This document shows, piece by piece, positions 16,690 through 64,000 of a stretch of 64,000 nucleotides of DNA. The DNA is from Flectonema sp. DT1601 (taxonomy: Eukaryota), in the NCBI GenBank assembly GCA_964019425.1, contig OZ025791.1, positions 558,001 through 622,000 of the forward strand, read 5' to 3'. The stretch's first letter is position 1. Every line of letters begins with the position of its first letter. The position numbers and the translations under genes were made by a program. The notes under the pieces were generated by a model. It did no database searches. It had not been told where the DNA came from and was given only the letters and a program-made list of their open reading frames with translations.

Positions 16690-19600
16690 TCAAGAAGATG
16701 GGGTAGCTGCTAAGGGATTTCTGTCTGATATCGCTGTGCTGCTGGACGTTGACTGACTTATACTTCTGCTTTCGCTTTTACGATCTTTCGGGTGTACAAA
16801 TGACACAACAGATTTCCTTCTTGCTTGTTTTTCTGCGACAGGAGAAGCTTGTCTTCGATTGCGACGGATCGATGAACTGAAAACTCCGCTGCTACTAATT
16901 CTACGAAGGGAATCAGCCCGAGCTGGGTTAATCGGATTTGCAAATTTTTGATACGGAAGTGGAACGTCTGTATCTCGCAGCATTGCTTTCCGTTCTTTAT
17001 GTCCCCTCCATATCTGTTGAATTCTAATTGCAGCAAACGAAACAGCAACAATTCCACACCCAACAGGTCTATTTGGGAATAAGAGATCCCATCTTTTTGA
17101 TATAATATTTAAATGCTTTGACCAAGCAGGAGATGCAACATCTGTTCGAAGTTCGTTCATTTCTCCAATAATACGACCATCTTCCATTGAGAGACTCCAT
17201 GTTAGTGCTAACATTAGATCGGAAAAGTGAACTGTGCTGTCTTTTGTTTCACGTAATCGTCTCCAGACATGTGCTGCTTTGCGTTTGTTGACTTGAATTG
17301 CTTCTGAGTGATGTTCTTGTGAAAATCCTAAAGGAGGACCAACGACTTGCATTAGGACAGGTAGTTTTCCAGTTTGAATCATCCACTGTCCTTCTTTTTG
17401 TTCTCGTTTTAGAAATTCGGATATAAAATGATCGACTTCTTCTACTATGAGAGGAGCGTTTGATTCATTGAGCACTTTGTCATATCCTGATAATATGATC
17501 GCGATCAGTAAATTCAAAACAACAAACATTACAATACATATGAACGTCACGAAGTATATAACTGCAAACCAACTATTCGGACAATCACCCATCTGTTCAG
17601 AGCAGTACGGAGGTGATACTCTCCTGCAATCAGCCATAATGCACTGCCATTCTTCACCAGTACTAAGACGAAATAAGAGAAGCATTGCATATCCAAATGA
17701 AGAGAAGTTTGCATGAACAGAAATACACTTTCCAGGAATAGCCATTCTACCGAACATATTAACACCTATAACAGCATACAAGAAATACAACAGTGAGAGC
17801 AGTCCAGCAACATTAACTAAATCAGCTAAGGAAAGCCACAGAGTTCGAAATAAGTTTTTAACTCCTTTGGCTCCTCGTACTACTCGTGTGATTCGTATAA
17901 GTCGTAGGACTCTAAATACTGATGTGACGACAGGGAAAGAATCATTAACCCCTCTTAATAAGTGACCAGCAACTGATGTAATTACAACAACGAAATCGAA
18001 TCGATTCCATCCGGCGACAAAATAAATCTTTCCATGAGACAATACTCTCAACAATAACTCTATAACATATGCGACGACGAATCCTTTATCGATTTCTTCG
18101 AGAGCTCGTGTGTACGTCTCTGGTTGTCCTTCGTGTTCAGACCCAATCAGAAAAACATTAAGTGCTATGATTACATAAACGCATCGATCAAAATAAGGAT
18201 GAACACACAGTCTTCTTGCAGCTTTAGACGCCCACCAATTCAATACTGCTTGTCTCTCATTAAAGGCTCTATTCGAACCTGATAGCGCAACTTGTTGTAT
18301 TCTGACCCATTCTTTCTGAACGGGTGATAGAGCGATTCCGATATTTTTCAATTCTTCCTTCTCTTTTGCTTTGTAGTAATGCTCTATGAGTACACCTATG
18401 AAGAGGTTAACGATGAAGAAAGAACCAAAAACAACGAATACGATAAAATAAACAGCCCAGAACGGTTGATTATTCTTTTTCGGAGCACGTCCAGGTTCGG
18501 TTCCGTCCATGCCAAGGTGCATCACTTGAACCCAACCTTCGAGAGTACTCATTTCGAATAGCACAAGAAGTGCTGCACCTACATGATTGAAATTTGAAGA
18601 AAACAACTCCCAAGTACCAACACCATCATTCAGACAGTCCTCTTCTGTTTGTAGTTCAGGGAGATCTCCCCAAGTGTGATGAGTGCACGCATAGAATTGA
18701 CCTTTGAAAATATGAACACCAAGAATTGCGAATATTACAAAAATAAGACCCGTCACCAACCCTATATGAGCTATTGGTGCCATCCCTGATAAAAGTGCTT
18801 CTATAACTAGTTTCATACCGATGGACTTGTTTATGAAACGAAGTGGACGAAGTGTTCTGATCATTCTAAATAATCCAAACTGACGATCATTTACAATAGT
18901 TGAGACAGCTGATAACACAACAATTAAGAAATCTAATTTATTCCACGGATCTCTTCTTAGGTACGCATCAGGGTGAAGAACAAACCCATACGCTAATGTT
19001 CTTAACAGAGCTTCAGCTGTAAAACAGCAAAGGAGAAACATATCAATCGCTTGAAGAGCTTTTGGAATATCTTCATCAGGAGCAGCTATTGGATTATACA
19101 TCGCAAGAGATACTGTTGAAAGACTAATCAAAAGTATAATAAGTACCTCAAAGTATGGATGCTCAACTAGATTCTTAAAGAATACTCTGACAGTATTCGT
19201 ACTAGAGCAAAGAAACAACGCTCGGTAGGTACGTTGTCGAGCAACAGGTGCTTTAGTTGGAACTATCACAAAACTATCTGTTTGCTCAGCGCTACTAGTC
19301 ATATGATATAGTGCACGCTCTTCTTGAGAAGATAGATTCCTGCTTAGAGGCGTGTGGTTCCCTTCTCCTTCTTCAGCAGATAAAAGTGTGAAAGGAGCAC
19401 TCTTTTCTTTCTCAATGGTCGGTTTATTTTCACTAACTTGTGTTTCGCTCTTCACTCGAGTAGCTGAATCCCCAGCAGAGTCGGAAAACTTTGATTCATT
19501 CATTTTTAAATGATCAATAGCAGGTCGACATCTCTGAAGAGGATTTTTCACTTCCAAATCACTCAATTCTGAGGCGACACTTTCGCGGGATTCTCTCCTT

Positions 19601-22600
19601 TTGGACTTCTTTGATTTCTTAGGTACAGAATTGTCACCTTGCAGAGGATTCAAATCACGTGATGATTTTCTTTTACTTTTCTTTGACTTGCTGCCTCGAC
19701 GTGAAGTCCTTGGCTCACCTGAAGCACCACTGCTACGTGATGTACGCCTTTTCATCTTTTTATCTTTAGTATCTAATTCGATGCTGTCACGAGATGATTT
19801 CCTCCGACTCTTCCTAAGTGTTTTGCTGGTTCTGCGAGAAGAGCGTGGCGATGATTCGCCTGTCGAAGAAATACTACCGGCTCTTGATGAACGCCGTTTA
19901 CCCTTTCTTGGTGATTTGGAAGTGATGCTACTTTCACCGAATGAATTTGCTCTTTTTGAAGACGTTTTACTGGCTGGACTTGAGCATTGGGTTTTCATTG
20001 CTGAAGGCAGCTCAAATGACTTTGAGGAAGCAGAGCTGCTATGTGATGATCCATCTCTTTTTCTACTTTCAGAAGATAGACTCAGTTCTGAAAGCCCACT
20101 TCCTTTTCGTAAATCCTTTGCAGTTGGTGACACGGCATCACTAGATCGTGTTGAAACAGAGCTGCGAGATGACATTCGTTTTTGTCTTCTTGGAGATGTC
20201 GCGTCGATGCTGAAATCTGACAGACGTGAAACTGCTGGTGATATTTCATCATCAGATCGAGATGAAAGACTTCCTCGATTCTTTAACCATTTCCCCCCTC
20301 CTGAGATCGGATCATTAAATCCCAACCCCCCATCATCTTCACAGAATTGATTCTTCGGTTTCTGCTGTGGTTGGACTGGTGACGCAGGTTCAACGTTTAT
20401 ATTATCTTCAAATTGCTCGTCGACGATACTCTCCTCATCTGTTGAGTCTTCTGTTTCTAAAACTACGTCCGTTTTCTGAAATTCATTAACTTGATATCTA
20501 TCTGGGAACTTTGTTTCACTAAATGAAACAGTTCTATCTAAATATTGTGATGCTTCAGATCTTGGGCTTTGAACAGAACGAGAACCTCCAACTCGTAGTA
20601 TACTAACAGTGCTCATTTGTTTACGTGGGGGTTCGTGAGTAACATAAGCATCTTCGCTATTATCATGTAAGGTTGCTAAATTTAATGCTCCAGTTGAAGT
20701 TACAGGGACGTCAGCTAGTTGAGGTAGCTTTGGAATGTTCGTGTTGACTGGTTGAGGTTGTTGATAACAACCTGACTTTATATTATCCGCACGACCTACG
20801 TTCGGAATTGTTGGTATTTTGAATCTTTCATCAGAAAATTCCATCAACGAATTAAATCTACTCTCCGGTTGTGAATCCCAAACCACTCCAATCGGAGCTT
20901 CTTCTTCCCCGACAGTCAACATCTCCGCAAGCATTCTAAGACAATTTGTATCTGCCTCGTCAGGAGGTTTTTCTTCACAAACGAAATCACAATTATTAAG
21001 CAACACAGCGATAAAAAGGTTTAGAACTATGTAGTTTCCGAGGATGAACAGCGATACGAAATAAAGTGAAAACAAAACTGGATTTCCGCGAGAACGCATA
21101 CCGTTATACATAATAGTATTCCAGTCCTCAGCAGTTATAACTTGAAAGACTGTTAGAAGAGCCCATCCCAAGGTATCGAAATTCTCACGAGGTAGATTCT
21201 CACAAAAATCATCAGAACTATATTCATATTGCGATGAGGGGAGGAGACCACAAAAACGAGAACCAAACAAATGCATTCCAAGTTGTGCATAAATTACTAA
21301 AACTAAAGCCAACAACAAAGTCAAAAACATAACTCCCTGAAGAGACTTTCCAATCGCTGTAATGGTTAACCACATATTCGGAAATTGCTTTGCTAATTTA
21401 AAAACTCTAAGTAGTCGAAAAGCTCTAAAAACACTTATACCAGACCGTTGACCATCTCTCTGATGTGACAAGATGACGATGTCAAGAAGAGAAGTCAAAG
21501 AAACAAACAAATCGAATAAGTTATTTCTCGATCTGATGTATTTTTTAATTGGAAATGCTGTCAGTTTTAGTAGAACTTCAGCAACGAATATGGTTGTGAA
21601 TACAATGTTTGACGTGTGATCTATTTTTTCAATTTCCGAAGGCTGCTTGTGGTGAACGGATGCCATGACTATCGTGTTGAGCACAATAGTAATAGTTATG
21701 AAATGGTCAAAGAATTTATTGGAAACAACCGAACGAAGTTTTTCTCGAAGACGACCAAACACATGTTGATAAGGAGACGCACCACCCTCACTTGATAACC
21801 GTTTCTGTAATGTTACTGGACCTAACTGAGATGAGTCTTGAACTTGAATGACTGAAACCGTTTGTTCGAGTTCAGCTTCCCTGGTACTAAAGAATATCGT
21901 ATTTATGGTGACCAGTGCTAGATTTGATACAAAAAACGATCCAAACAATATAACCAACACGAAAAAGATAGCAGCGCTCGCATGGGATGAATCCATAGCA
22001 TTGTACATCACTGATACCCATCCTTCCATAGTCACTAATGTAAACATTGTTAGAATCGAAACTCCCAAATTATCAAACGACGTTTGACCATAATTAGGAT
22101 TATCAACTGTAACACAACTATATCCCCAAGGACAATGGTATCCAAATGAAACAGTCGCTCCAGGCTTACATGTTCTACTTGGGTCATCAAGAAGTGTTAT
22201 TTTTGCGTTTAATGTCAGATCAGGTCGGCATCTATATTTCAACTTTCCATGCCAAAATTGAACAGCAACAATCCCAGTAACAACAACAAAGAAGAAATAC
22301 AAACACAAAACATCTGCAAGCTGTCCTAACGATCTCAATAAAACTGTTATGATAAGCTGTAATCCTTTAACATGAGTAACAGCCTTGAGAGGACGGAGGA
22401 CTCGAAAAGTTCGTATCGCTGTCAACCCTACCTGATCATTATTAACAAGTAATTCAAGTGTCATTGTACAACAGGATATCAGAACTATAACAAAGTCTAG
22501 TTTATTCCAAGGATCTCGTATGTATGAATTAGGTTTGGCGTAGAACCCTTGCATATATATCCGAGCGATGGCCTCAAATAAGAATATAACAGTGAAAACA

Positions 22601-22872
22601 TATTCAACGTATTGAAGTGATTTATTTCGAGTAGTTTTGTTAGAAGTGTCTGTTGGATCAATTGCGCAGAGTGCGATGCAATTTAAAGTTATGAAGACGA
22701 GAACGATTCTGTCAAACCACTTTCCGCGAAGGATTCGATGGCTTGGTTGCTGTACAAGTGGCTCACCAAAGTAAGAAGCAAATGACGTTCTTCTCAACGA
22801 AGAATGTCGTAACCGCGAGCTAGTCGCTCTTGCAAACCCCGGCAACTGCTCTGTGAGTTCCGATGCTTCCAT
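16690..22872 (-). CDS. Four-domain voltage-gated Ca2+ channel alpha subunit (EEEE filter)
   Basis: Four 6-TM repeats with Arg-rich S4 segments. Pore loops TMEGW/TAEDW/TLEGW/TGEEW. C-terminal IQ motif IQQIWRGH. First ATG is at 22872. Confidence 0.93.
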   Translation of the reverse strand: MEASELTEQLPGFARATSSRLRHSSLRRTSFASYFGEPLVQQPSHRILRGKWFDRIVLVFITLNCIALCAIDPTDTSNKTTRNKSLQYVEYVFTVIFLFEAIARIYMQGFYAKPNSYIRDPWNKLDFVIVLISCCTMTLELLVNNDQVGLTAIRTFRVLRPLKAVTHVKGLQLIITVLLRSLGQLADVLCLYFFFVVVTGIVAVQFWHGKLKYRCRPDLTLNAKITLLDDPSRTCKPGATVSFGYHCPWGYSCVTVDNPNYGQTSFDNLGVSILTMFTLVTMEGWVSVMYNAMDSSHASAAIFFVLVILFGSFFVSNLALVTINTIFFSTREAELEQTVSVIQVQDSSQLGPVTLQKRLSSEGGASPYQHVFGRLREKLRSVVSNKFFDHFITITIVLNTIVMASVHHKQPSEIEKIDHTSNIVFTTIFVAEVLLKLTAFPIKKYIRSRNNLFDLFVSLTSLLDIVILSHQRDGQRSGISVFRAFRLLRVFKLAKQFPNMWLTITAIGKSLQGVMFLTLLLALVLVIYAQLGMHLFGSRFCGLLPSSQYEYSSDDFCENLPRENFDTLGWALLTVFQVITAEDWNTIMYNGMRSRGNPVLFSLYFVSLFILGNYIVLNLFIAVLLNNCDFVCEEKPPDEADTNCLRMLAEMLTVGEEEAPIGVVWDSQPESRFNSLMEFSDERFKIPTIPNVGRADNIKSGCYQQPQPVNTNIPKLPQLADVPVTSTGALNLATLHDNSEDAYVTHEPPRKQMSTVSILRVGGSRSVQSPRSEASQYLDRTVSFSETKFPDRYQVNEFQKTDVVLETEDSTDEESIVDEQFEDNINVEPASPVQPQQKPKNQFCEDDGGLGFNDPISGGGKWLKNRGSLSSRSDDEISPAVSRLSDFSIDATSPRRQKRMSSRSSVSTRSSDAVSPTAKDLRKGSGLSELSLSSESRKRDGSSHSSSASSKSFELPSAMKTQCSSPASKTSSKRANSFGESSITSKSPRKGKRRSSRAGSISSTGESSPRSSRRTSKTLRKSRRKSSRDSIELDTKDKKMKRRTSRSSGASGEPRTSRRGSKSKKSKRKSSRDLNPLQGDNSVPKKSKKSKRRESRESVASELSDLEVKNPLQRCRPAIDHLKMNESKFSDSAGDSATRVKSETQVSENKPTIEKEKSAPFTLLSAEEGEGNHTPLSRNLSSQEERALYHMTSSAEQTDSFVIVPTKAPVARQRTYRALFLCSSTNTVRVFFKNLVEHPYFEVLIILLISLSTVSLAMYNPIAAPDEDIPKALQAIDMFLLCCFTAEALLRTLAYGFVLHPDAYLRRDPWNKLDFLIVVLSAVSTIVNDRQFGLFRMIRTLRPLRFINKSIGMKLVIEALLSGMAPIAHIGLVTGLIFVIFAILGVHIFKGQFYACTHHTWGDLPELQTEEDCLNDGVGTWELFSSNFNHVGAALLVLFEMSTLEGWVQVMHLGMDGTEPGRAPKKNNQPFWAVYFIVFVVFGSFFIVNLFIGVLIEHYYKAKEKEELKNIGIALSPVQKEWVRIQQVALSGSNRAFNERQAVLNWWASKAARRLCVHPYFDRCVYVIIALNVFLIGSEHEGQPETYTRALEEIDKGFVVAYVIELLLRVLSHGKIYFVAGWNRFDFVVVITSVAGHLLRGVNDSFPVVTSVFRVLRLIRITRVVRGAKGVKNLFRTLWLSLADLVNVAGLLSLLYFLYAVIGVNMFGRMAIPGKCISVHANFSSFGYAMLLLFRLSTGEEWQCIMADCRRVSPPYCSEQMGDCPNSWFAVIYFVTFICIVMFVVLNLLIAIILSGYDKVLNESNAPLIVEEVDHFISEFLKREQKEGQWMIQTGKLPVLMQVVGPPLGFSQEHHSEAIQVNKRKAAHVWRRLRETKDSTVHFSDLMLALTWSLSMEDGRIIGEMNELRTDVASPAWSKHLNIISKRWDLLFPNRPVGCGIVAVSFAAIRIQQIWRGHKERKAMLRDTDVPLPYQKFANPINPARADSLRRISSSGVFSSSIRRNRRQASPVAEKQARRKSVVSFVHPKDRKSESRSISQSTSSSTAISDRNPLAATPSS

Positions 22873-23029
22873 TCTACTACACGTCACCTATCCTATCTCA
22901 TTAACAAAAAACCTTTACATGCTCATATAACTTTATATTCTCTGTAGACAAATAAACTGATATTGGTATTTCAAACTCCTCAAACAAAGAAAACAAAACA
23001 GAACAAAGAAATACAAACGAATCCATAAT

Positions 23030-30582: not shown

Positions 30583-31818
30583 TTATAATTGAAAAACAGA
30601 ATTCATCTTAAAAGGCTTCGAGCCGCTTAGTTGAGGATTTTGAGTGAAGTCAAGTTGGTCTAAAACCTCACGTAGTCCGTAGAGTAGTTCGCTGTATTTA
30701 ACTGTCTTTCCTCGTTCTTCTATTGATTTGATTAAAACAATAAAAGCGGTAGTTAGAGCCCCACCTGCTCTACCTTTAACAGCAGATCCGATGAAGGAGT
30801 CGTGTGGACGAAGACGAGCATTGGCTTCTCTTTCGTTTCGGACTGCAAGTGATGATCGTCGTTTTGTTGTGTTTACAGATCTCTTTTTTGGTCCGCTATA
30901 CCAATTAGTAAACCAGTCTTCTCCATCATCCATTGATGCTAAGAAATCGTATTCTTCTTTTTCAGTTGGAGGTCTTTCATTTGCGTTCAATGGTAACAAG
31001 TCTTCTTCTGTGAATGTTATCGGAGGGTTGTCATCAAATGCTGAAGTAATTTCTCGAACATCTGTTGTGTCAGCTGATGTTTCTTCATCAGCACATCCAC
31101 TTAAAAGTAAAACATCAGCATCACAAAGTCTATTTGAATAATCATAATTAGTTAAAGGTTGTAAAGTATCTTCATATTCATCAATGGATTCTGTTTGAGA
31201 CATTTTACGTCTTTCTTGCATAGTTTTCCAGCTGGTTTTTGAAGGGCAGAGACCGAAAGGTAAATCTAAACCAGTACCTGAATGACAACAGTCCATTACA
31301 GCTGTTAGTCGACAACCAGCTGGTAAAGGTTTAATAAGGATCTCAAACATAACGTCATCAACAATCTGTCCTTTGATACGGTGATCAGACGGGAGGATGG
31401 TCTCGTCCAAACCATCAACTTCATCTCCGTCGGTGTCCTTAACTTGACATCCGTGTCCTGCAAAGAAGAAGAACAGACTATCACCAGGCTTTGCTCCATA
31501 AACTAACCATTTCATTCCTACTAAAATATTAACTCGGTTTGCAAAACTACTTGTTCCTTGGTGTTCAGCCTCGTCTGTTAACATTCGAACATCAGAGAAT
31601 CCTTTTCCTTCTAAAAACTCTCTCATTCGCTTAGCATCACTGACACAACCATCTAACTCAGCCTTCCCTTGTCCGTAATAATTAATTCCAATTATCAAAG
31701 CACGTCTTCTAGCATCTTTAGGTACAGAAACTAATACAGTTGGTGAAACCATACTCACTACTTCTCCATTTGGATGAGTTCTACGTGGTGGATCACACAG
31801 GTCGAGGACATTACCCAT
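30583..31818 (-). CDS. Metacaspase (peptidase C14)
   Basis: RALIIGINY, catalytic GHG and DCCHSG, SGCADEETSAD, GGALT, QNPQLS. Confidence 0.93.
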   Translation of the reverse strand: MGNVLDLCDPPRRTHPNGEVVSMVSPTVLVSVPKDARRRALIIGINYYGQGKAELDGCVSDAKRMREFLEGKGFSDVRMLTDEAEHQGTSSFANRVNILVGMKWLVYGAKPGDSLFFFFAGHGCQVKDTDGDEVDGLDETILPSDHRIKGQIVDDVMFEILIKPLPAGCRLTAVMDCCHSGTGLDLPFGLCPSKTSWKTMQERRKMSQTESIDEYEDTLQPLTNYDYSNRLCDADVLLLSGCADEETSADTTDVREITSAFDDNPPITFTEEDLLPLNANERPPTEKEEYDFLASMDDGEDWFTNWYSGPKKRSVNTTKRRSSLAVRNEREANARLRPHDSFIGSAVKGRAGGALTTAFIVLIKSIEERGKTVKYSELLYGLREVLDQLDFTQNPQLSGSKPFKMNSVFQL

Positions 31819-32369
31819 GTGTGTTCTCCTTTTTGGTAATTATCTTTGTTATGTGTAAATAGCTGTGAAGGAGGGTATAAATAATTATTTCTCAGAATGT
31901 ATTCCGATGCGAAGGGGTAAAGCAAGTGCGAGTGTCGTTCCACCGCTTATGTGATGTATGGCAACACTGTTGTGGAAAATACATCTACAAAAAGAATGTA
32001 GCATGTCTTGGATTTTAAAAACATATATTTGCTTGTCAACTTATTTTGCCATTGTGTGGCAATAGTTTACTGTGACAAGAAAGGACTACGTAATGTTCTC
32101 CGGAATTAGAAATTGTATTAAGACGTTGCTCGTTGAAGAACTTCTCCCCACTGCTGGTTCGCGACCAAGGGAACGTTTTTTTTTTTTTTTCGTTTTTTTT
32201 AACTTCTTTATCTTTCGCTTCCTCGTTTCTTTCCTTCTTTCTTTTGTTGCTTTTCTGCCGTTTGTTTCTCGTAATCTTCGAGAGCCGTGCAGACAGGCAT
32301 TATAAACGGACAACACTACACAGCGGAGAATGCCACATGGAGAGATAATACAAGTTGACAGCACACAGT

Positions 32370-33632
32370 CTATGCTAGCCTCGTGAAGTCCTTAACAATG
32401 TTTTTGTGGTGAGATTCTAGAGTTCCTCCTCCAATCTGTTATAGTTAATTGGTTGTGTGGTGTGATATAATTAGGACTCTGTTATCTCAGGAAATCGGAA
32501 AACATACCTCTAAAAGCTTAGCGTCTCTCCAAAGACGTTCGACAGGCATATCTCTGCTGTATCCCATACCTCCGAGAACCTGCATTGCAGCATCGGCCAC
32601 TTCCTTTCCGACAGGTGTTGCGAACAACTTTGCAGCGTCAGTACCAATTCTGTTTTGCTCATCAGCACCTACAGAACGGGCGACTGTGTAGGTCAAAGTC
32701 TTTGCAGCTTCAGTCTTGGCAAATCCTTCAGCGATGTACTTTTGGATTTGACCGAACTCTGCGATTGGCTTTCCAAAGCAACGTCTTTGTTGAGACCAAT
32801 CGAACATCACTTCAAGTGATCTGTCTGCGATACCAACAGACATGGCTGCGAGTGTAAGTCTTTCAAGTTCTAAGTTACGCATCATACACTTAACTCCACC
32901 ACCTTCTGCTCCAATAAGGTTTTCAACTGGTACTTTAACGTTGTTGAATCCTAAGTCACACATAGTAGATGCTCTCATACCACACTTGTCAATCTTGCTA
33001 CCTTGTGTGAATCCTTCGTAACCTCTCTCAACAATAAAAGCGGAGACCTTTCCTTCAACCTTTGCGTAGACAAGGAATATATCAGCATGGGTACCGTTTG
33101 TAATCCAAGTCTTACCACCGTTAAGAATGTAGTGGTCTCCCTCACGTACGGCAGTAGACTGCATACCAAGGACATCAGTACCAGCACCTGGTTCAGACAT
33201 ACCCATGGCACCAATCCACTCACCAGACATGACCTTATCAAGGTAGCGAGCCCTTTGGTCTGCGTTTGCAGCGTTGTAGAAGTTGTTAACGAATAACATT
33301 GAGTGAGCCAGATATGCGAGACAGAACCCTGGGTCAACCTTTGACAGTTCGTGGTGGATGATGACTGCGGCAGTAGCATCCATTCCAACACCTCCATCTT
33401 CTGCTGGGATAGTAATTCCCATCATTCCTAATTCTCCGAACTCCTTTAGAAGCTCAACGTTGAAGTCACCTCTGACGTCGTATTCTCTCGCTTGTGGTTC
33501 AACCTTCTCTTTAGCGAATTTAGCAACGGTGTCTCTAATCTGTTCATGCTCTGGAGTTGGGTTGTAGAGAAAGTCAGCTCCCTTCATGCTGAGAAACCTT
33601 CTCTGACCCGCGGCGAGTGCTGAACGCATCAT
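32370..33632 (-). CDS. IVD: Isovaleryl-CoA dehydrogenase-like acyl-CoA dehydrogenase (2 exons: 33632-32508, 32435-32370)
   Basis: Mitochondrial-type presequence and motifs GAMGMSEPGAGTDV, KTWITNG, LGGMGY. Intron 32507-32436 restores the conserved LEIGGGT. Confidence 0.88.
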
Positions 33633-45298: not shown

Positions 45299-46419
45299 CT
45301 ATGCTGCTTCTGCTTCTGTTTGTTTTTAATTCACTTTTGGGTCTGTTGCTGGAAGACTTTCTTACTAAATTTTAAAAAAGAAAATCCATACCAACATCAT
45401 CATCATTAATGTCATCTCCTGCCAATGCCTTAATAGCATCATCACCAATTGGATCGTTTGACTCTCCAATATCGTTGGTGGCTAGAGGTGCTCCAAAACC
45501 TGTTAGTAGTTTAGTAATTGTTATTTATAATTAAAGAGGAAAACGATGGAACGAATAACATACTTGTCCACTCTGTGTAGTTAGTGCCGTGGCGGATATC
45601 AACATTCTTCGGATGTCTCCAGTAGTGTTTTATAATACGAGTATCTGGATCTTTATCCCAAGGCATTATCCACCAACCTCCTTCTGACTCGTGAGTTTTC
45701 CAGAATTTCGCAAACGGAGAAAACTCTTTAACCTCAGCAATAGCCTCCTTGTGAGGGTTTCCGTCACTTCGGATCTTTTCGAGTGGTTGCTCAACGTGTT
45801 CGCTGTAAGTCCAGTCCCGGAGAGTGTCAAGTTTTCCTTTAAGGAAGTTCCTATCACATTCCTTAACGGTGGAAAATCCAAGCCAACGTGCCTGATTTAA
45901 AGCGTACAATGCCACGTCAGGACACCCCACGCGAAGGCAAGCGTCCATGTAAGATGTAAAAACATCGTGTTCAAGATGTACGTTGAAGAACTGTCGATAG
46001 GCGCGAAACATTTTTGTTGCATATCCGAGATCCTTAGCGGTAGAGACTTGGGTTATTGCCGTGTCTAAGAGTGAGATTGGTGGGATTGAAACACCTCTAC
46101 GAGACCAATGAGACCATAAGTAATTAGCTGTAAATCCGAGATATATTTGTTCAGTTAGTGTCTCGGGTTCGAGTTCAAATATTTTTTTCTCAGCAAATTT
46201 TTGTCTCATCCACATTGGGTGTTCTACCTGTCCGTATGGACGTCGATAACTAAAGTCAACTACACCTCTCCATGATTGGAATAATTCCTCGTTTTTCCTC
46301 GTAGTTGCATCATCTCTCTCATAAACCCTCCACATTATAGGTCTGTTGGGAGTCGTTACGTAGTCTTTCAGCCATGCTTCTCGCCGTAAGCCGAGTTTCC
46401 CTCGCTTTAATGAGGACAT
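45299..46419 (-). CDS. PPR-like helical-repeat protein, probably mitochondrial (3 exons: 46419-45564, 45499-45392, 45315-45299)
   Basis: PPR-like segment DVFTSYMDACLRVGCPDVA. Two GTATG..CAG introns give an in-frame acidic C-terminus. Confidence 0.55.
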
Positions 46420-48365: not shown

Positions 48366-50878
48366 TTAGAAAGTGTTGTTTACATTTTTTCTGCAACGAG
48401 CAGCTCCCGCAGCAACTTGAGGGTTGCTCTGTCCTCTTGAGATTATAGCATTGTAATCGTCAAGCGCCTTTTGCCATCTTTCAAGTCCTTCGTATGCCAT
48501 TGCTCTTCTGAGAAACGCTTTTACGTTGTTTTCATTTACAGCCAGTGCCTCTCCACAGTCTCCAATTACCTGCTTGTATGATGATGACTGAGCATGGCAT
48601 GTAGCTCTGTTTACAAAGTATGTTGCACGGTCAGGGTCATTCTCGTCGGAAAGCTCAATAGCTCTTGTGTAGTAGGAAATCGCGTCTTCGTATGCTCCGT
48701 TCTTGAAGTGGCTGTTGCCCATCAATTTAGCCTATTGTAGTAGTTAGATTTCTATATTTTTAAACATCACCAGGAAAGACTATCCAGTGGGTAAACCAAT
48801 AATACATACCTCGTTGGCACTCTTGCAGCTTCCAGGGTTGGCCTTGGTGTTTCTATCCTTAATCTTTGAACGTACTTCAGTCAAACTATCACCAATGTCT
48901 CTGTAAGTTTATTAACATCATTTCAAACAATTGGAAAAGTTACTAAATTAATACTTAGAAGGTACATACTGGTTGGTTGGCTCAAACTTCAAGGCCAGTG
49001 AATAATTCTTCTCAGCATCATCGATGCTTCCTTTTGCGAGAAGTGCAACAGCCTTTCTAAAGTAACCCTTAACCCATTCAGGTCTACATCTAATGCATGT
49101 GTCAGCATCAGCAATCTGTTTTAATAATTTCGCCGACAGCGCACTCGGAAAACAATTTCGCTGCTACAGTGGGAAGCTAATTAAACGAGAAGGATATTTC
49201 AGTTCCCTGTGTTGACATCAGTGCGAGAAACAACGAGAGGGTCTTAAGCTCCGTTAAATGCTTCTCGCTAATAAACACGGACCAGGGTTATGATCATCAT
49301 TAATTAGGAAAGGGTGGCATCGAACAGAAGAAGTGATGTCTCTCAAGGGACAAAACAATAAGATCTCGCCAAGCATCCGTGGCATGCAACTCACAGTAAT
49401 TAGGGCTGCCACCCGGTGTTGCCGGCTGTAAGAAAGATTAATAATAAAACTCTCCCACCCCACAGCACACGGAAACGGTTCTGCTGCGACGACAGCGTAG
49501 GACGGTGGGAATAATATTGGAACACGTACAAGGGTACAGCTCCAGGTTGTGGAAGGAAGAAGATCTCGCCAAGCATCCGTGGCATGCAACTCACAGTAAT
49601 TAGGGCTGCCACCCGGTGTTGCCGGCTGTAATAAGGATTAATAACAAAACTCTCCCGCCCCGTTTCACCCCACAGCACACGGAAAACGATTTCTGCTGCG
49701 ACGACAGCGTAGGACGGTGTGGAAGCTAATTACACGAGAAGGGTATGTTTCAGTTCCCTGTGTTGACATCAGTGCGAGGAACAACGAGAGGGTCTTAAGC
49801 TCCGTTAAATGCTTCTCGCTAATAAACACGGACCAGGGTTATGATCATCATTAATCAGGAAAGGTTGGCATCGAACAGAAGAAGTGATGTCTCTCAAGGG
49901 ACAAAACAATAAGATCTCGCCAAGCATCCGTGGCATGCAACTCACAGTAATTAGGGCTGCCACCCGGTGTTGCCGGCTGTAATAAGGATTATTAACAAAA
50001 CTCTCCCGCCCCGTTTCACCCCACAGCACACGGAAAACGATTCTGCTGCGACGACAGCGTAAGACGGTGTGGAAGCTAATTACACGAGAAGGGTATGTTT
50101 CAGTTCCCTGTGTTGACATCAGTGCGAGGAACAACGAGAGGGTCTTAAGCTCCGTTAAATGCTTCTCGCTAATAAACACGGACCAGGGTTATGATCATCA
50201 TTAATCAGGAAAGGTTGGCATCGAACAGAAGAAGTGATGTCTCTCAAGGGACAAAACAATAAGATCTCGCCAAGCATCCGTGGCAGGCAACTCACAGTAA
50301 TTAGGGCTGCCACCCGGTGTTGCCGGCTGTAAGAAAGATTAATAACAAAACTCTCCCGCCCCGTTTCACCCCACAGCACACGGAAAACGATTCTGCTGCG
50401 ACGACAGCGTAGGACGGTGTGAATAATATTGGAACACGCGCAAGTGTACAGCTCCAGGTTGTGGAGGGAAGAAGATCTCGCCAAGCATCCGTGGCATGCA
50501 ACTCACAGTAATTAGGGCTGCCACCCGGTGTTGCCGGCTGTAATAAGGATCAATAACAAAACTCTCCCGCCCCGTTTCACCCCACAGCACACGGAAAACG
50601 GTTCTGCTGCGACGACAGCGTAGGACGGTGGGAAGTTAATTGAACAAGAAAGTCAACAGCCTGCTGGAAGCTAATAATGTTTTAAAACAAAAATAAACAC
50701 ATACCGCGTCATCGTAATTTTTCAACTGAATATGACAAGCTGCCTTGTTTGAACTAATAGTTCCAATGTTTTCACTATTTGGCTCACAGAGCTCTATGGC
50801 TTTAGTGTATTGTTCAATAGCTTCCTTAAATTGCTTTTTCTTAAAGAAGTCATTTCCCTTGGCTCTGAGGTCATCCAT
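48366..50878 (-). CDS. Two-TPR-domain (STI1/Hop-like) co-chaperone (4 exons: 50878-50705, 49115-48970, 48900-48810, 48731-48366)
   Basis: TPR clamp motifs KGNDFFK..YTKAI, WVKGYFRKA, GNSHFK..YTRAI, KAFLRRA. The frame is preserved across introns 50704-49116 (1589 nt), 48969-48901 and 48809-48732. Confidence 0.88.
49195..49304 (-). ncRNA. C/D box snoRNA, U18/snR18-like (copy 1)
   Basis: Box C ATGATGA (49300-49294), guide TGGTCCGTGTTT antisense to conserved LSU AAACACGGACCA, internal GCGAGAAGCA/TGTTTCTCGC stem, C'-like CTGATGT, box D CTGA (49202-49199). Confidence 0.85.
49361..49428 (-). ncRNA. Candidate single-hairpin AGA-box RNA H1 (other array-1 copies start at 49561, 49912, 50262, 50473)
   Basis: About 68 nt: lower stem GCCGG/CTTGGC, internal loop, upper stem GTGGCA/TGCCAC, then G-AGA-NNN. 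Confidence 0.6.
49648..49719 (-). ncRNA. Candidate single-hairpin AGA-box RNA H2 (other array-1 copies start at 49999, 50349, 50560; a deleted copy at 49448)
   Basis: About 71 nt: lower stem CCGTCC/GGGCGG, internal loop, upper stem TCGCAGCA/TGCTGTGG, then G-AGA-NNN. Confidence 0.62.
49746..49855 (-). ncRNA. C/D box snoRNA, U18-like (copy 2)
   Basis: Same boxes and guide; C 49851-49845, D 49753-49750. Confidence 0.8.
50096..50205 (-). ncRNA. C/D box snoRNA, U18-like (copy 3)
   Basis: Same boxes and guide; C 50201-50195, D 50103-50100. Confidence 0.8.
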
Positions 50879-60832: not shown

Positions 60833-63800
60833 CTAGTAAAATTCTGAGGTGAGGGATGGATCTGGCTTTCCAATAGCAAACACATCAAAACCAACCTCAC
60901 GAAGGGTGCTAGCGTCTAGAATCGCTCTCCCATCGAATAAAAACGCTGGTTTTTTCATCTTTGCGTAGATGTCCTGAAAGTCAAGAGTCTGTTTGAGTTG
61001 TATTACACAGTCAAAGAGATAATAATAAAAACAGATAAGATTAGATAATCGCATACCTTAAACTCATCCCACTCTGTTAACACAGCAATAGAGTGCGCAT
61101 TATTACAAGCATCGACAGCTGAGCTTTCAACCTTCACGAGTTGCTCAACTCTAGCTCTGACTGAAGGATCTTCAATAAACGCTGTGAGGTCAGCAATGAT
61201 CTGCTCTCTTGGAACCTGTTTTTAATAATTTTATTCAACTACACTTGTTTCATGAATCTAATAACCCTCACTGGTAAAATACGATTACTCTGCATAGGAC
61301 GCTCAGAGACACTTGCCATCTCTTTGGGGATGCCGCAAGGATCATTGACGACGGTCCCGATAACACATGCAGTTGTATTGTTAGGTCTGCTGTCAAGGGT
61401 AAATCGAAACTTAGTAGCAGAGAAAGCGCCGAAGCAACGAGGGTGCTAGAAAGTCGGACAGAGGCAACCTTTTCTGGAGTGGGTCAAAAGTTTGAATCAG
61501 TTGCCAGGCACAGGATAAACACGGCTGAAGAGATGGGGTCGAGTCGATAAGAACGACCGTTGAAGATTTCACGATGAGACAGCAGCTACAGCAACAACAA
61601 ACCGAGACGGTAATGCAGTCTTTAATGGCGGACTCGTTTCACTAAAAACACGGGTAGCAAGGCAAGAGACACAACCTCAGCAACAAGAAGCAGTGAAGAT
61701 GCCGATGTCACCGCCACTATCAAACAAAAAAAGAAATGAGGTAAAACAGATATTTCAGTTCCCTGTGTTGACATCAGTGCGAGAAACAACGAGAGGGTCT
61801 TAAGCTCCGTTAAATGCTTCTCGCTAATAAACACGGACCAGGGTTATGATCATCATTAATCAGGAAAGGTTGGCATCGAACAGAAGAAGTGATGTCTCTC
61901 AAGGGACAAAACAATAAGATCTCGCCAAGCATCCGTGGCATGCAACTCACAGTAATTAGGGCTGCCACCCGGTGTTGCCGGCTGTAAGAAAAATTAATAA
62001 CAAAACTCTCCCGCCCCGTTTCACCCTACAGCACACGGAAAACGATTCTACTGCGACGACAGCGTAGGACGGTGTGGAAGCTAATTACACGAGAAGGGTA
62101 TGTTTCAGTTCCCTGTGTTGACATCAGTGCGAGGAACAACGAGAGGGTCTTAAGCTCCGTTAAATGCTTCTCGCTAATAAACACGGACCAGGGTTATGAT
62201 CATCATTAATCAGGAAAGGTTGGCATCGAACAGAAGAAGTGATGTCTCTCAAGGGACAAAACAATAAGATCTCGCCAAGCATCCGTGGCATGCAACTCAC
62301 AGTAATTAGGGCTGCCACCCGGTGTTGCCGGCTGTAATAAGGATTAATAACAAAACTCTCCCGCCCCGTTTCACCCCACAGCACACGGAAAACGGTTTCT
62401 GCTGCGACGACAGCGTAGGACGGTGTGAATAATATTGGAACACGCACAAGTGTGCAGCTCTATGTTGTAGAAGGAAGAAGATCTCGCCAAGCATCCGTGG
62501 CATGCAACTCACAGTAATTAGGGCTGCCACCCGGTGTTGCCGGCTGTAAGAAAGATTAATAACAAAACTCTCCCGCCCCGTTTCACCCCACAGCACACGG
62601 AAAACGGTTTCTGCTGCGACGACAGCGTAGGACGGTGTGAATAATATTGGAACACGCACAAGTGTACAGCTCTATGTTGTAGAAGGAAGAAGATCTCGCC
62701 AAGCATCCGTGGCAGGCAACTCACAGTAATTAGGGCTGCCACCCGGTGTTGCCGGCTGCAATAAGGATTATTAACAAACTCTCCCGCCCCGTTTCACCCC
62801 ACAGCACACGGGAAACGATTCTACTGCGACGACAGCGTAGGACGGTGTGGAAGCTAATTACACGAGAAGGGTATGTTTCAGTTCCCTGTGTTGACATCAG
62901 TGCGAGGAACAACGAGAGGGTCTTAAGCTCCGTTAAATGCTTCTCGCTAATAAACACGGACCAGGGTTATGATCATCATTAATCAGGAAAGGTTGGCATC
63001 GAACAGAAGAAGTGATGTCTCTCAAGGGACAAAACAATAAGATCTCGCCAAGCATCCGTGGCATGCAACTCACAGTAATTAGGGCTGCCACCCGGTGTTG
63101 CCGGCTGTAATAAGGATTAATAACAAAACTCTCCCGCCCCGTTTCACCCCACAGCACACGGAAAACGGTTTCTGCTGCGACGACAGCGTAGGACGGTGTG
63201 AATAATATTGGAACACGCACAAGTGTACAGCTCTATGTTGTAGAAGGAAGAAGATCTCGCCAAGCATCCGTGGCATGCAACTCACAGTAATTAGGGCTGC
63301 CACCCGGTGTTGCCGGCTGCAATAAGGATTATTAACAAACTCTCCCGCCCCGTTTCACCCCACAGCACACGGAAAACGGTTCTGCTGCGACGACAGCGTA
63401 GGACGGTGGGAATAATATTGACTGCTAGCTAAAAATTAGCAAACTCATGTGATACATACCTTAGGATCGTAAATGTGAACAAATGCTCCCTCTTCAATTA
63501 AAGTAGCGCAGATACTAATAGCACAAGTTTCACGAGTATCACCTGTATCCTTTTTGAAAGCAAATCCCAGAATAGCAATCTTCTTGCCGGATACGGTGTC
63601 GAACATAGTTTGGATCATTTTTTGTGCGAATCTCCTCTTCTGGTACTCGTTGATGTCGATAACGGACTTCCAGTACTGAGCGACCTCTTCAAGACCAAGA
63701 CACTCAGATAGGTAAACAAGGTTTAAGATATCTTTTTGGAAACATGATCCACCAAAACCAACAGAGGCTTGCAAGAACTTTGGTCCAATACGAGTGTCTT

Positions 63801-64000
63801 TACCAACAGCACGTGCGACTTCAGAGACGTCAGCACCAGTTGCTTCACAAACAGCGCTGATAGCGTTAATTGAACTAATTCTCTGAGCTAAGAAAGCATT
63901 AGCAACTAATTTAGAAAGTTCTGAAGACCAGAGATTTGTTCTAATAATTTGTGAGTCAGGTACCCAACTTCTGTAGACTGATGCTAACTTCTCAACAGCT
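60833..64000 (-). CDS. UGDH: UDP-glucose 6-dehydrogenase, 5'-partial (exons >64000-63460, 61215-61057, 60988-60833)
   Basis: [41 protein letters not shown]. Introns 63459-61216 (2244 nt) and 61056-60989. Confidence 0.95.
61751..61860 (-). ncRNA. C/D box snoRNA, U18-like (copy 4)
   Basis: C 61856-61850, D 61758-61755. Confidence 0.85.
61917..61984 (-). ncRNA. Candidate AGA-box RNA H1 (other array-2 copies start at 62267, 62479, 62691, 63040, 63252)
   Basis: Same hairpin plus AGA as in array 1. Confidence 0.6.
62004..62074 (-). ncRNA. Candidate AGA-box RNA H2 (other array-2 copies start at 62354, 62566, 62777, 63127, 63338)
   Basis: Same hairpin plus AGA as in array 1. Confidence 0.62.
62101..62210 (-). 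ncRNA. C/D box snoRNA, U18-like (copy 5)
   Basis: C 62206-62200, D 62108-62105. Confidence 0.8.
62874..62983 (-). ncRNA. C/D box snoRNA, U18-like (copy 6)
   Basis: C 62979-62973, D 62881-62878. Confidence 0.8.

Follow-up and report, generated by a model that had tools for sequence, protein, structure and literature searches.

The locus considered here raises the question of whether a short repeated element is a genuine relative of the U18/snR18 box C/D guide and, if so, from what kind of transcript it is released. In the window (the whole 64,000-nt stretch of DNA that was analysed, to which all coordinates refer), the C/D element, the arrays harboring it and both host genes lie on the minus strand. 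Since the U18 guide is universal and its trypanosomatid orthologs have been mapped, finding such a guide is expected: taken by itself, the element is likely an ordinary, ancient U18-type guide predicted to direct the methylation of one rRNA base. Its context, missed by the first-pass annotation, is that of one unit of mixed arrays residing in predicted diplonemid introns. Overall, with a probability of roughly 0.8, the 105-nt element represents a U18/snR18-type C/D guide of a probable diplonemid, predicted to direct 2'-O-methylation at the Am649-equivalent position of the LSU rRNA and likely released from predicted host introns together with two candidate single-hairpin pseudouridine guides.

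The LSU rRNA of diplonemids is unfragmented; the rRNA of their sister groups is fragmented and heavily modified. The locus offers three candidate guides with testable targets in this lineage with an unfragmented LSU.

Structure and Family Assignment of the C/D RNA

A C box (RUGAUGA) near the 5' end and a D box (CUGA) at the 3' end are present in all six copies of the element. The order of boxes reported in the first pass (C, guide, ATTA, hairpin, CTGATGT, D) was borne out, as was the presence of a hairpin in the D'-C' gap, with the coordinates collected in Table 1. The window contains six exact occurrences of the guide 12-mer, whereas the expectation, allowing one mismatch, is 0.29, and none of 100 shuffles reached six. 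Likewise, the combination of a C box, a 12-mer antisense to rRNA and CTGA was encountered six times in the window and never beyond the two arrays, and a single occurrence of this architecture appeared in 3 of 100 mononucleotide shuffles. The 114-nt stretch harboring the RNA is characterized by a folding z of -2.68; its terminal stem comprises 2-3 pairs only, and in the lowest-energy fold a part of the D-side spacer is paired with the bases preceding the guide.

Table 1. Features of the snoRNA arrays and of their predicted host genes (positions in the 64,000-nt window).
Feature	Position	Strand	Remarks
U18/snR18-type box C/D RNA, copy 1 (the copy annotated in the first pass)	49197-49301	-	boxes, guide, Rfam, fold
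C box ATGATGA, copy 1	49300-49294	-	
Guide TGGTCCGTGTTT, 12 nt, copy 1	49284-49273	-	
D' ATTA, copy 1	49272-49269	-	degenerate
D'-C' hairpin, copy 1	49268-49223	-	
C' CTGATGT, copy 1	49221-49215	-	
D-side spacer, 12 nt, copy 1	49214-49203	-	
D box CTGA, copy 1	49202-49199	-	
C/D RNA copy 2	49748-49852	-	TPR intron
C/D RNA copy 3	50098-50202	-	TPR intron
C/D RNA copy 4	61753-61857	-	last unit of the UGDH-intron array; private variants common to the copy at 49301
C/D RNA copy 5	62103-62207	-	UGDH intron
C/D RNA copy 6	62876-62980	-	UGDH intron
Hairpin B, 67 nt, single hairpin ending AGA + 3 nt	49361-49427	-	one of 11 copies; predicted pseudouridine guide
Hairpin B, 5' ends	63318, 63106, 62757, 62545, 62333, 61983, 50539, 50328, 49978, 49627, 49427	-	
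Hairpin A, ~70 nt, single hairpin with internal loop, ending AGA + 3 nt	49648-49718	-	one of 11 copies; candidate pseudouridine guide
Hairpin A, 5' ends	63407, 63197, 62846, 62636, 62424, 62073, 50629, 50418, 50068, 49718, 49506	-	
Hairpin A copy lacking 10 nt of the 3' pocket strand and lower stem	49448-49506	-	likely dead
TPR-gene intron 1, GT-AG, 1,589 nt, predicted	49116-50704	-	array A-B-c-A-B-d-CD-A-B-d-CD-A-B-c-A-B-d-CD
UDP-glucose 6-dehydrogenase (UGDH) intron, GT-AG, 2,244 nt, predicted	61216-63459	-	array A-B-c-A-B-d-CD-A-B-c-A-B-c-A-B-d-CD-A-B-d-CD, plus ~535 nt of unrelated sequence
Host gene 1, 258-aa TPR protein	48366-50878	-	exons 50878-50705, 49115-48970, 48900-48810, 48731-48366
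Host gene 2, UGDH 3' part	60833-63999	-	exons ...-63460, 61215-61057, 60988-60833; extends past the window edge

The internal boxes are less regular: the G of the GA pair is missing from D' (ATTA), and C' (CTGATGT) is off consensus at two positions. The C'/D' motif harbors an A-U in place of one of the two G-A pairs, a replacement tolerated by some kink-turns. The geometry of the hairpin is compatible with a C'/D' kink-turn, since the first pair of its stem comes immediately after ATTA, and its 3' arm gives way to a 3-nt bulge and then to GA, which supports ATTA as D'.

The comparison with the U18 covariance model, proposed in the first pass, gave a divided result: SNORD18 (RF00093) ranked best, with identity over the C box and the entire guide, but its score of 25.3 bits (E 0.023) was under the gathering score of 41; at gathering thresholds, Rfam yielded no matches in the window. 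Nevertheless, the boxes, the guide, the target register and the best Rfam match agree on the U18/snR18-like identity, and the RNA is best regarded as a probable functional homolog of SNORD18/U18 and, by score, not as a member of the Rfam family. With SNORD18/U18 and yeast snR18 it shares the C box, the short gap and the same 12-nt guide before D', as well as the predicted LSU site. Unlike SNORD18/U18, it is ~30 nt longer owing to the D'-C' hairpin, possesses ATTA as D', scores below the family threshold and occurs in six copies inside mixed arrays. Vertebrate U18 is intronic. Yeast snR18 is intron-encoded according to a statement in PMC9351541.

Close parallels come from trypanosomatids, the sister lineage of the host inside Euglenozoa. 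There, TB10Cs2C2 and LM/LD/LA33Cs2C2, as listed in entries of the supplement to PMC13487219, carry the same 12-nt guide and a likewise non-canonical D' (CAGA), and target Am746/Am681. These RNAs are ~70-80 nt long and devoid of the long hairpin seen here; the same entries include several trypanosomatid C/D RNAs exceeding 100 nt, so the extra length is not unusual for the group.

Mixed Arrays in Predicted Introns

The two arrays are assembled from five types of units: hairpin A (11), hairpin B (11), spacer c (5), spacer d (6) and the C/D RNA (6). This repeated mixed snoRNA cluster is predicted to sit within introns of two unrelated protein genes. One of them encodes a TPR protein whose homolog in Diplonema papillatum carries the source name 'Stress-induced-phosphoprotein 1'; the other encodes UGDH. 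Removal of the introns leaves open frames in both hosts, the TPR exons joining in frame to 258 aa. The TPR homologs comprise 258-263 aa, and three of the four tested align on both sides of intron 1; all five tested dehydrogenases continue residue by residue across the UGDH intron.

According to the mechanism proposed, the host pre-mRNAs would be cis-spliced, and the intron RNA would be cleaved within the spacers, its fragments then being trimmed down to individual RNAs. Such processing would proceed as in the polycistronic clusters of trypanosomes and plants, by analogy with known snoRNA pathways. The freed guides would then load fibrillarin or Cbf5 complexes.

The most durable alternative accepts the guides as real and posits for them a transcription start of their own in or upstream of the intron, as in trypanosome-like polycistrons, the intronic position being incidental. 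It is favored by the distance from the array end to the 3' splice site, which is not fixed (~535 nt in UGDH and ~80 nt in TPR). Both arrays, however, lie on the sense strand of the host and begin 52-75 nt past the 5' splice site, leaving scant room for a promoter, and both are wholly intronic, while the remaining three introns of the two host genes span just 68-78 nt. An independent start is hence regarded as unlikely, if worth keeping in view, and release from the host introns is preferred.

Two observations concern the non-guide parts of the introns. Spacer c (49510-49565, minus strand, and four further copies) forms a small hairpin (z = -3.9) without a box motif, which could be a processing signal. 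The tail of the UGDH intron (61216-61750, minus strand) comprises ~535 nt outside the repeats, whose plus strand contains two frames of 90-94 codons uninterrupted by stops; it yielded no Pfam family and occurs just once in the window.

Among the named relatives of the UGDH exon, the best are from Namystynia (87%), Diplonema, Rhynchopus and Lacrimia. In a tree of 17 UGDH proteins, the enzyme of the window is joined to nine diplonemid-type rows (97/96) and falls within neither the Namystynia/Hemistasia nor the Diplonema/Rhynchopus/Lacrimia group. The host organism, a marine protist, is, judging by these protein relatives, likely a diplonemid. Elsewhere in the window, a 302-aa protein (45514-46419, minus strand) without a Pfam domain was noticed; it has only eight relatives (63-70% identity), and the readable names among them are all diplonemid.

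Comparison with Known snoRNA Clusters

As described in the pertinent part of PMC2613932, trypanosome clusters consist of mixed C/D and single-hairpin RNAs, are repeated and sometimes have a second site on the same chromosome. The arrays reported here resemble them in the mixture of C/D and AGA-box RNAs, the short spacers, the tandem or partial repeats and the second copy on the same chromosome. They differ in that the repeated cluster lies wholly within predicted introns of protein-coding genes. Trypanosomatids possess cis-introns in just three genes, as stated in a passage of PMC11613528, so an intronic location of their clusters would not be expected. Euglena clusters, polycistronic according to a secondary statement, are of the mixed single-hairpin AGA-box type as well. 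The snoRNA clusters of Chlamydomonas and plants are, per the relevant portion of PMC7671301, polycistronic and nested in host introns as here; in contrast to them, the present arrays contain euglenozoan single-hairpin guides, reach 14 and 15 RNA units per intron with three RNA types, and are present as an entire block in each of two unrelated host genes separated by 11 kb.

Neither diplonemid snoRNAs nor intronic snoRNA clusters in Euglenozoa were found described in a search to which most of the subscription literature, including the papers on Euglena snoRNAs, did not contribute, so this counts as weak evidence of absence; the main text and seven supplements of the D. papillatum genome paper contain no mention of snoRNAs. 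Within this scope, the intronic placement of a trypanosome-style cluster was not found reported for Euglenozoa. Diplonemids combine trans-splicing and cis-introns, and the locus suggests that such a lineage hosts euglenozoan-type clusters in its introns.

Predicted Target of the D' Guide

The guide was described in the first pass as perfectly antisense to a conserved LSU motif, and this claim held: it forms 12 Watson-Crick pairs, a number reached by none of 300 guide shuffles (best 10), and the motif is exact in all 16 diplonemid-probe rDNA loci extending to the site. These loci were fetched not via the target motif but by a published diplonemid SSU probe (PMC7970053 table), which retrieved 83 loci, 58 of them in an rRNA context; the 16 LSU-reaching loci fall into 14 clusters when the 400 nt upstream are grouped at 90%. 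Three of the probe-retrieved loci possess, according to Rfam, one continuous LSU and a 2,060-nt SSU. Among the 41 loci covering a second diplonemid probe, it was exact in 28, had one mismatch in 3 and two mismatches in 10, the latter being no better than other eukaryotes; a minority of the loci (L065, L101, L112 and their kin) is less surely diplonemid.

The fifth base upstream of D' ATTA pairs with the A of AAAC[A]CGG. In yeast, the table in PMC8307265 lists m1A645, Am649 and Cm650 of the LSU, the latter two being guided by U18. The supplement entries of PMC13487219 give m1A677 and Am681 for the Leishmania LSU, with LM33Cs2C2 as the guide of Am681, and position 746 for TB10Cs2C2 in T. brucei. 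The 4-nt offset between m1A and Am, common to yeast and Leishmania, indicates the equivalence of Am649 and Am681. Thus, the first-pass assignment of D'+5 to the site of snR18/U18 was upheld, the register by the geometry of the hairpin and the equivalence by the m1A offset. In the mechanism proposed, the hairpin starting directly after ATTA and closing on the 3-nt bulge and GA would set D' against C' in a kink-turn geometry; this placement would fix the D'+5 register, and fibrillarin would methylate the A of the motif.

Another register (the Cm650-equivalent or a neighbour), or a role mainly as a chaperone of pre-rRNA with a weak C'/D' that binds no core proteins, might be considered, given that ATTA lacks one G of the kink-turn pairs, that yeast U18 is assigned to both A649 and C650 (PMC8307265 table) and that TB10Cs2C2 is assigned to several adjacent T. 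brucei positions, 744-747 (entries in PMC13487219). On the other hand, a stem that starts at the base after ATTA and is followed by the bulge and GA fits the ATTA register only, and with the next D'-like word, four bases ahead of the box would stay unpaired. This possibility is accordingly deemed improbable, and methylation of the Am649-equivalent remains the preferred prediction.

With the SSU V4 region, the D-side spacer forms 9 pairs in 21 of 42 loci, and 10 of 300 shuffles attain as many. SSU V4 may be the target of a second guide, weaker than the first and located upstream of the D box; this is a lead only. In the sense direction, the D-side spacer (49199-49216, minus strand) also shows similarity to a conserved stretch of the SSU.

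Single-Hairpin AGA-Box RNAs

The consensus of euglenozoan single-hairpin guides given in the corresponding part of PMC2613932 includes a stem I of 5-8 pairs, an AGA box 3 nt from the end, a target U located 13-16 nt from AGA and 3-9 pairs per side. Hairpin B conforms to it, with a 5-pair stem I, the U at 14 nt and 6 + 8 pairs, the pocket having been picked post hoc; its upper stem adjoining the pocket counts only 3-4 pairs. At a site in the LSU, 14 nt from AGA, 8 + 6 pairs are formed in 11 loci and 8 + 4 in three. All 14 matched diplonemid-probe loci have the target U, versus 0 of 37 other eukaryotic loci, in a count whose pattern misses locus L077, where the general eukaryotic form of the site is found at the contig end. 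With the pocket fixed after seeing the best match, 1 of 300 shuffles reached the score; in an open search 1 of 40 did, and the antisense control attained 12.5 vs 13.5. Hairpin B is predicted to be a guide for a diplonemid-type LSU uridine.

Hairpin A fits the AGA-box type structurally and has a clean internal loop. Its best site (4 + 6 pairs at 14 nt) was reached by 17 of 300 shuffles and lay below the shuffle mean in the open search.

Several other candidates were rejected. The first guess at an SSU target of hairpin B had no metagenome matches, and the diplonemid-probe SSU differs there. A target of hairpin A near the LSU 3' end pairs over 9 nt on one side only, by inspection, and a role of this hairpin as an SLA1-like guide on the spliced leader was discarded, also by inspection, upon a misfit of the 5' pocket. 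A weak Rfam match between hairpin B and an H/ACA family of Drosophila (E 3.8) was treated as chance. No conserved target for the D-side guide, hairpin A or hairpin B emerged among 50 non-diplonemid rDNA loci, which were chosen by the target motif and so carry no evidence on its conservation.

Variation Among the Copies

The first-pass annotation had stated that the boxes and the guide are invariant while the spacers vary. The former are indeed identical in all six copies, but the spacers are nearly invariant too: 3 of 109 columns differ among the copies, just one of them (C/T in the hairpin) between the C and D boxes, along with 2 of 59 positions in the 59-nt spacer upstream, and four copies are identical across 195 nt. 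With one differing position between the C and D boxes, the invariance reflects recent duplication and carries no selection signal; the argument for conservation drawn from the copies is invalidated by near-identity over the whole unit. By their sequences, the six copies evidently represent one recent duplication and not six independent witnesses.

Other units are more diverse. Hairpin B differs at 2 of 70 columns; the figures are 31 of 101 for the hairpin A unit including spacers, 10 of these stemming from a single deletion, and 9 of 55 for spacer c.

These figures bear on the view that the arrays constitute a tandem repeat derived from snoRNAs, most of its copies being dead, with the working U18 gene elsewhere in the genome. 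Compatible with it are the near-identity of the copies, the hairpin A copy with a 10-nt deletion, a decayed A-like remnant (49167-49141), the degenerate D' and C' and the Rfam score under the threshold. Yet every C/D copy retains an intact C box, D box, guide and register, hairpin B is much less variable than the A unit with its spacers or spacer c, and it fits a diplonemid-type rRNA site. A dead repeat is very improbable, and functional guides are preferred.

Origin of the Two Arrays

The order of units differs between the TPR and UGDH arrays, and spacer c exists in array-specific variants (three UGDH vs two TPR copies), an indication that both loci are real and that homogenisation has acted within each. 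It is very unlikely that misassembly accounts for the copy number or for the second array: the units are 97-100% identical and read coverage amounts to one 207-nt repeat-unit contig of depth 2.3 in each of two runs of one sample, which is uninformative as to expression, but unit order and spacer c variants are array-specific, each array has intron flanks of its own and the array-bearing contig measures 761 kb.

The final C/D copy of each array carries private variants common to both, and a common origin of the two array blocks appears clear from their sequences. Both introns also have in common an acceptor of 15-16 nt (49116-49130 and 61216-61231, minus strand), found twice in the window vs 0.01 expected, with the pattern read off the two sites themselves and A-rich acceptors being the local norm; it may mark a common origin of the introns, whose 5' ends align poorly. 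The hairpin A remnant mentioned above (minus strand; 27 nt, 81%, E 0.055) is situated just upstream of the TPR acceptor, hinting that the TPR array is older or was formerly longer.

In the scenario proposed, tandem duplication and a recent block copy into a second gene would have raised the dosage of the guides. More broadly, it may tentatively be suggested, at somewhat less than even odds, that diplonemids moved a trypanosome-style repeated snoRNA polycistron into cis-spliced introns and that the cluster travels as a unit, recently copied (as a whole intron, or as the block and its acceptor) between unrelated genes. The movement of mobile snoRNAs between host introns is known from the literature (a section of PMC3511168). 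Were this to hold, the locus would represent the first diplonemid snoRNA cluster on record and an instance of a whole cluster caught on the move, and possibly an instance of intron gain. The near-identical arrays in different hosts provide a direct test of the movement and homogenisation of snoRNA clusters.

Other Observations

No tRNA genes were found in the window. In viral contigs, nine chance matches to the LSU motif were encountered, none of them rRNA, and no U18-like pattern. Fifty contigs filed under bacterial or archaeal genomes (L010-L059) carry the eukaryotic LSU motif, and ~490 are estimated in the collection; the three checked are eukaryotic rRNA, and L024 is kinetoplastid-like by inspection. 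Judging from these sequences, they are probably contamination in public assemblies. On the plus strand of the window (33466-33478), a 13-mer complementary to SSU rRNA and preceded, 108 nt upstream, by a C-box word lies opposite a coding frame and is likely due to chance. Two minus-strand frames stand out by inspection: an uninterrupted frame of 2,065 codons (16690-22887) resembles a four-domain voltage-gated cation channel, and a frame of 418 codons (30583-31839) resembles a metacaspase.
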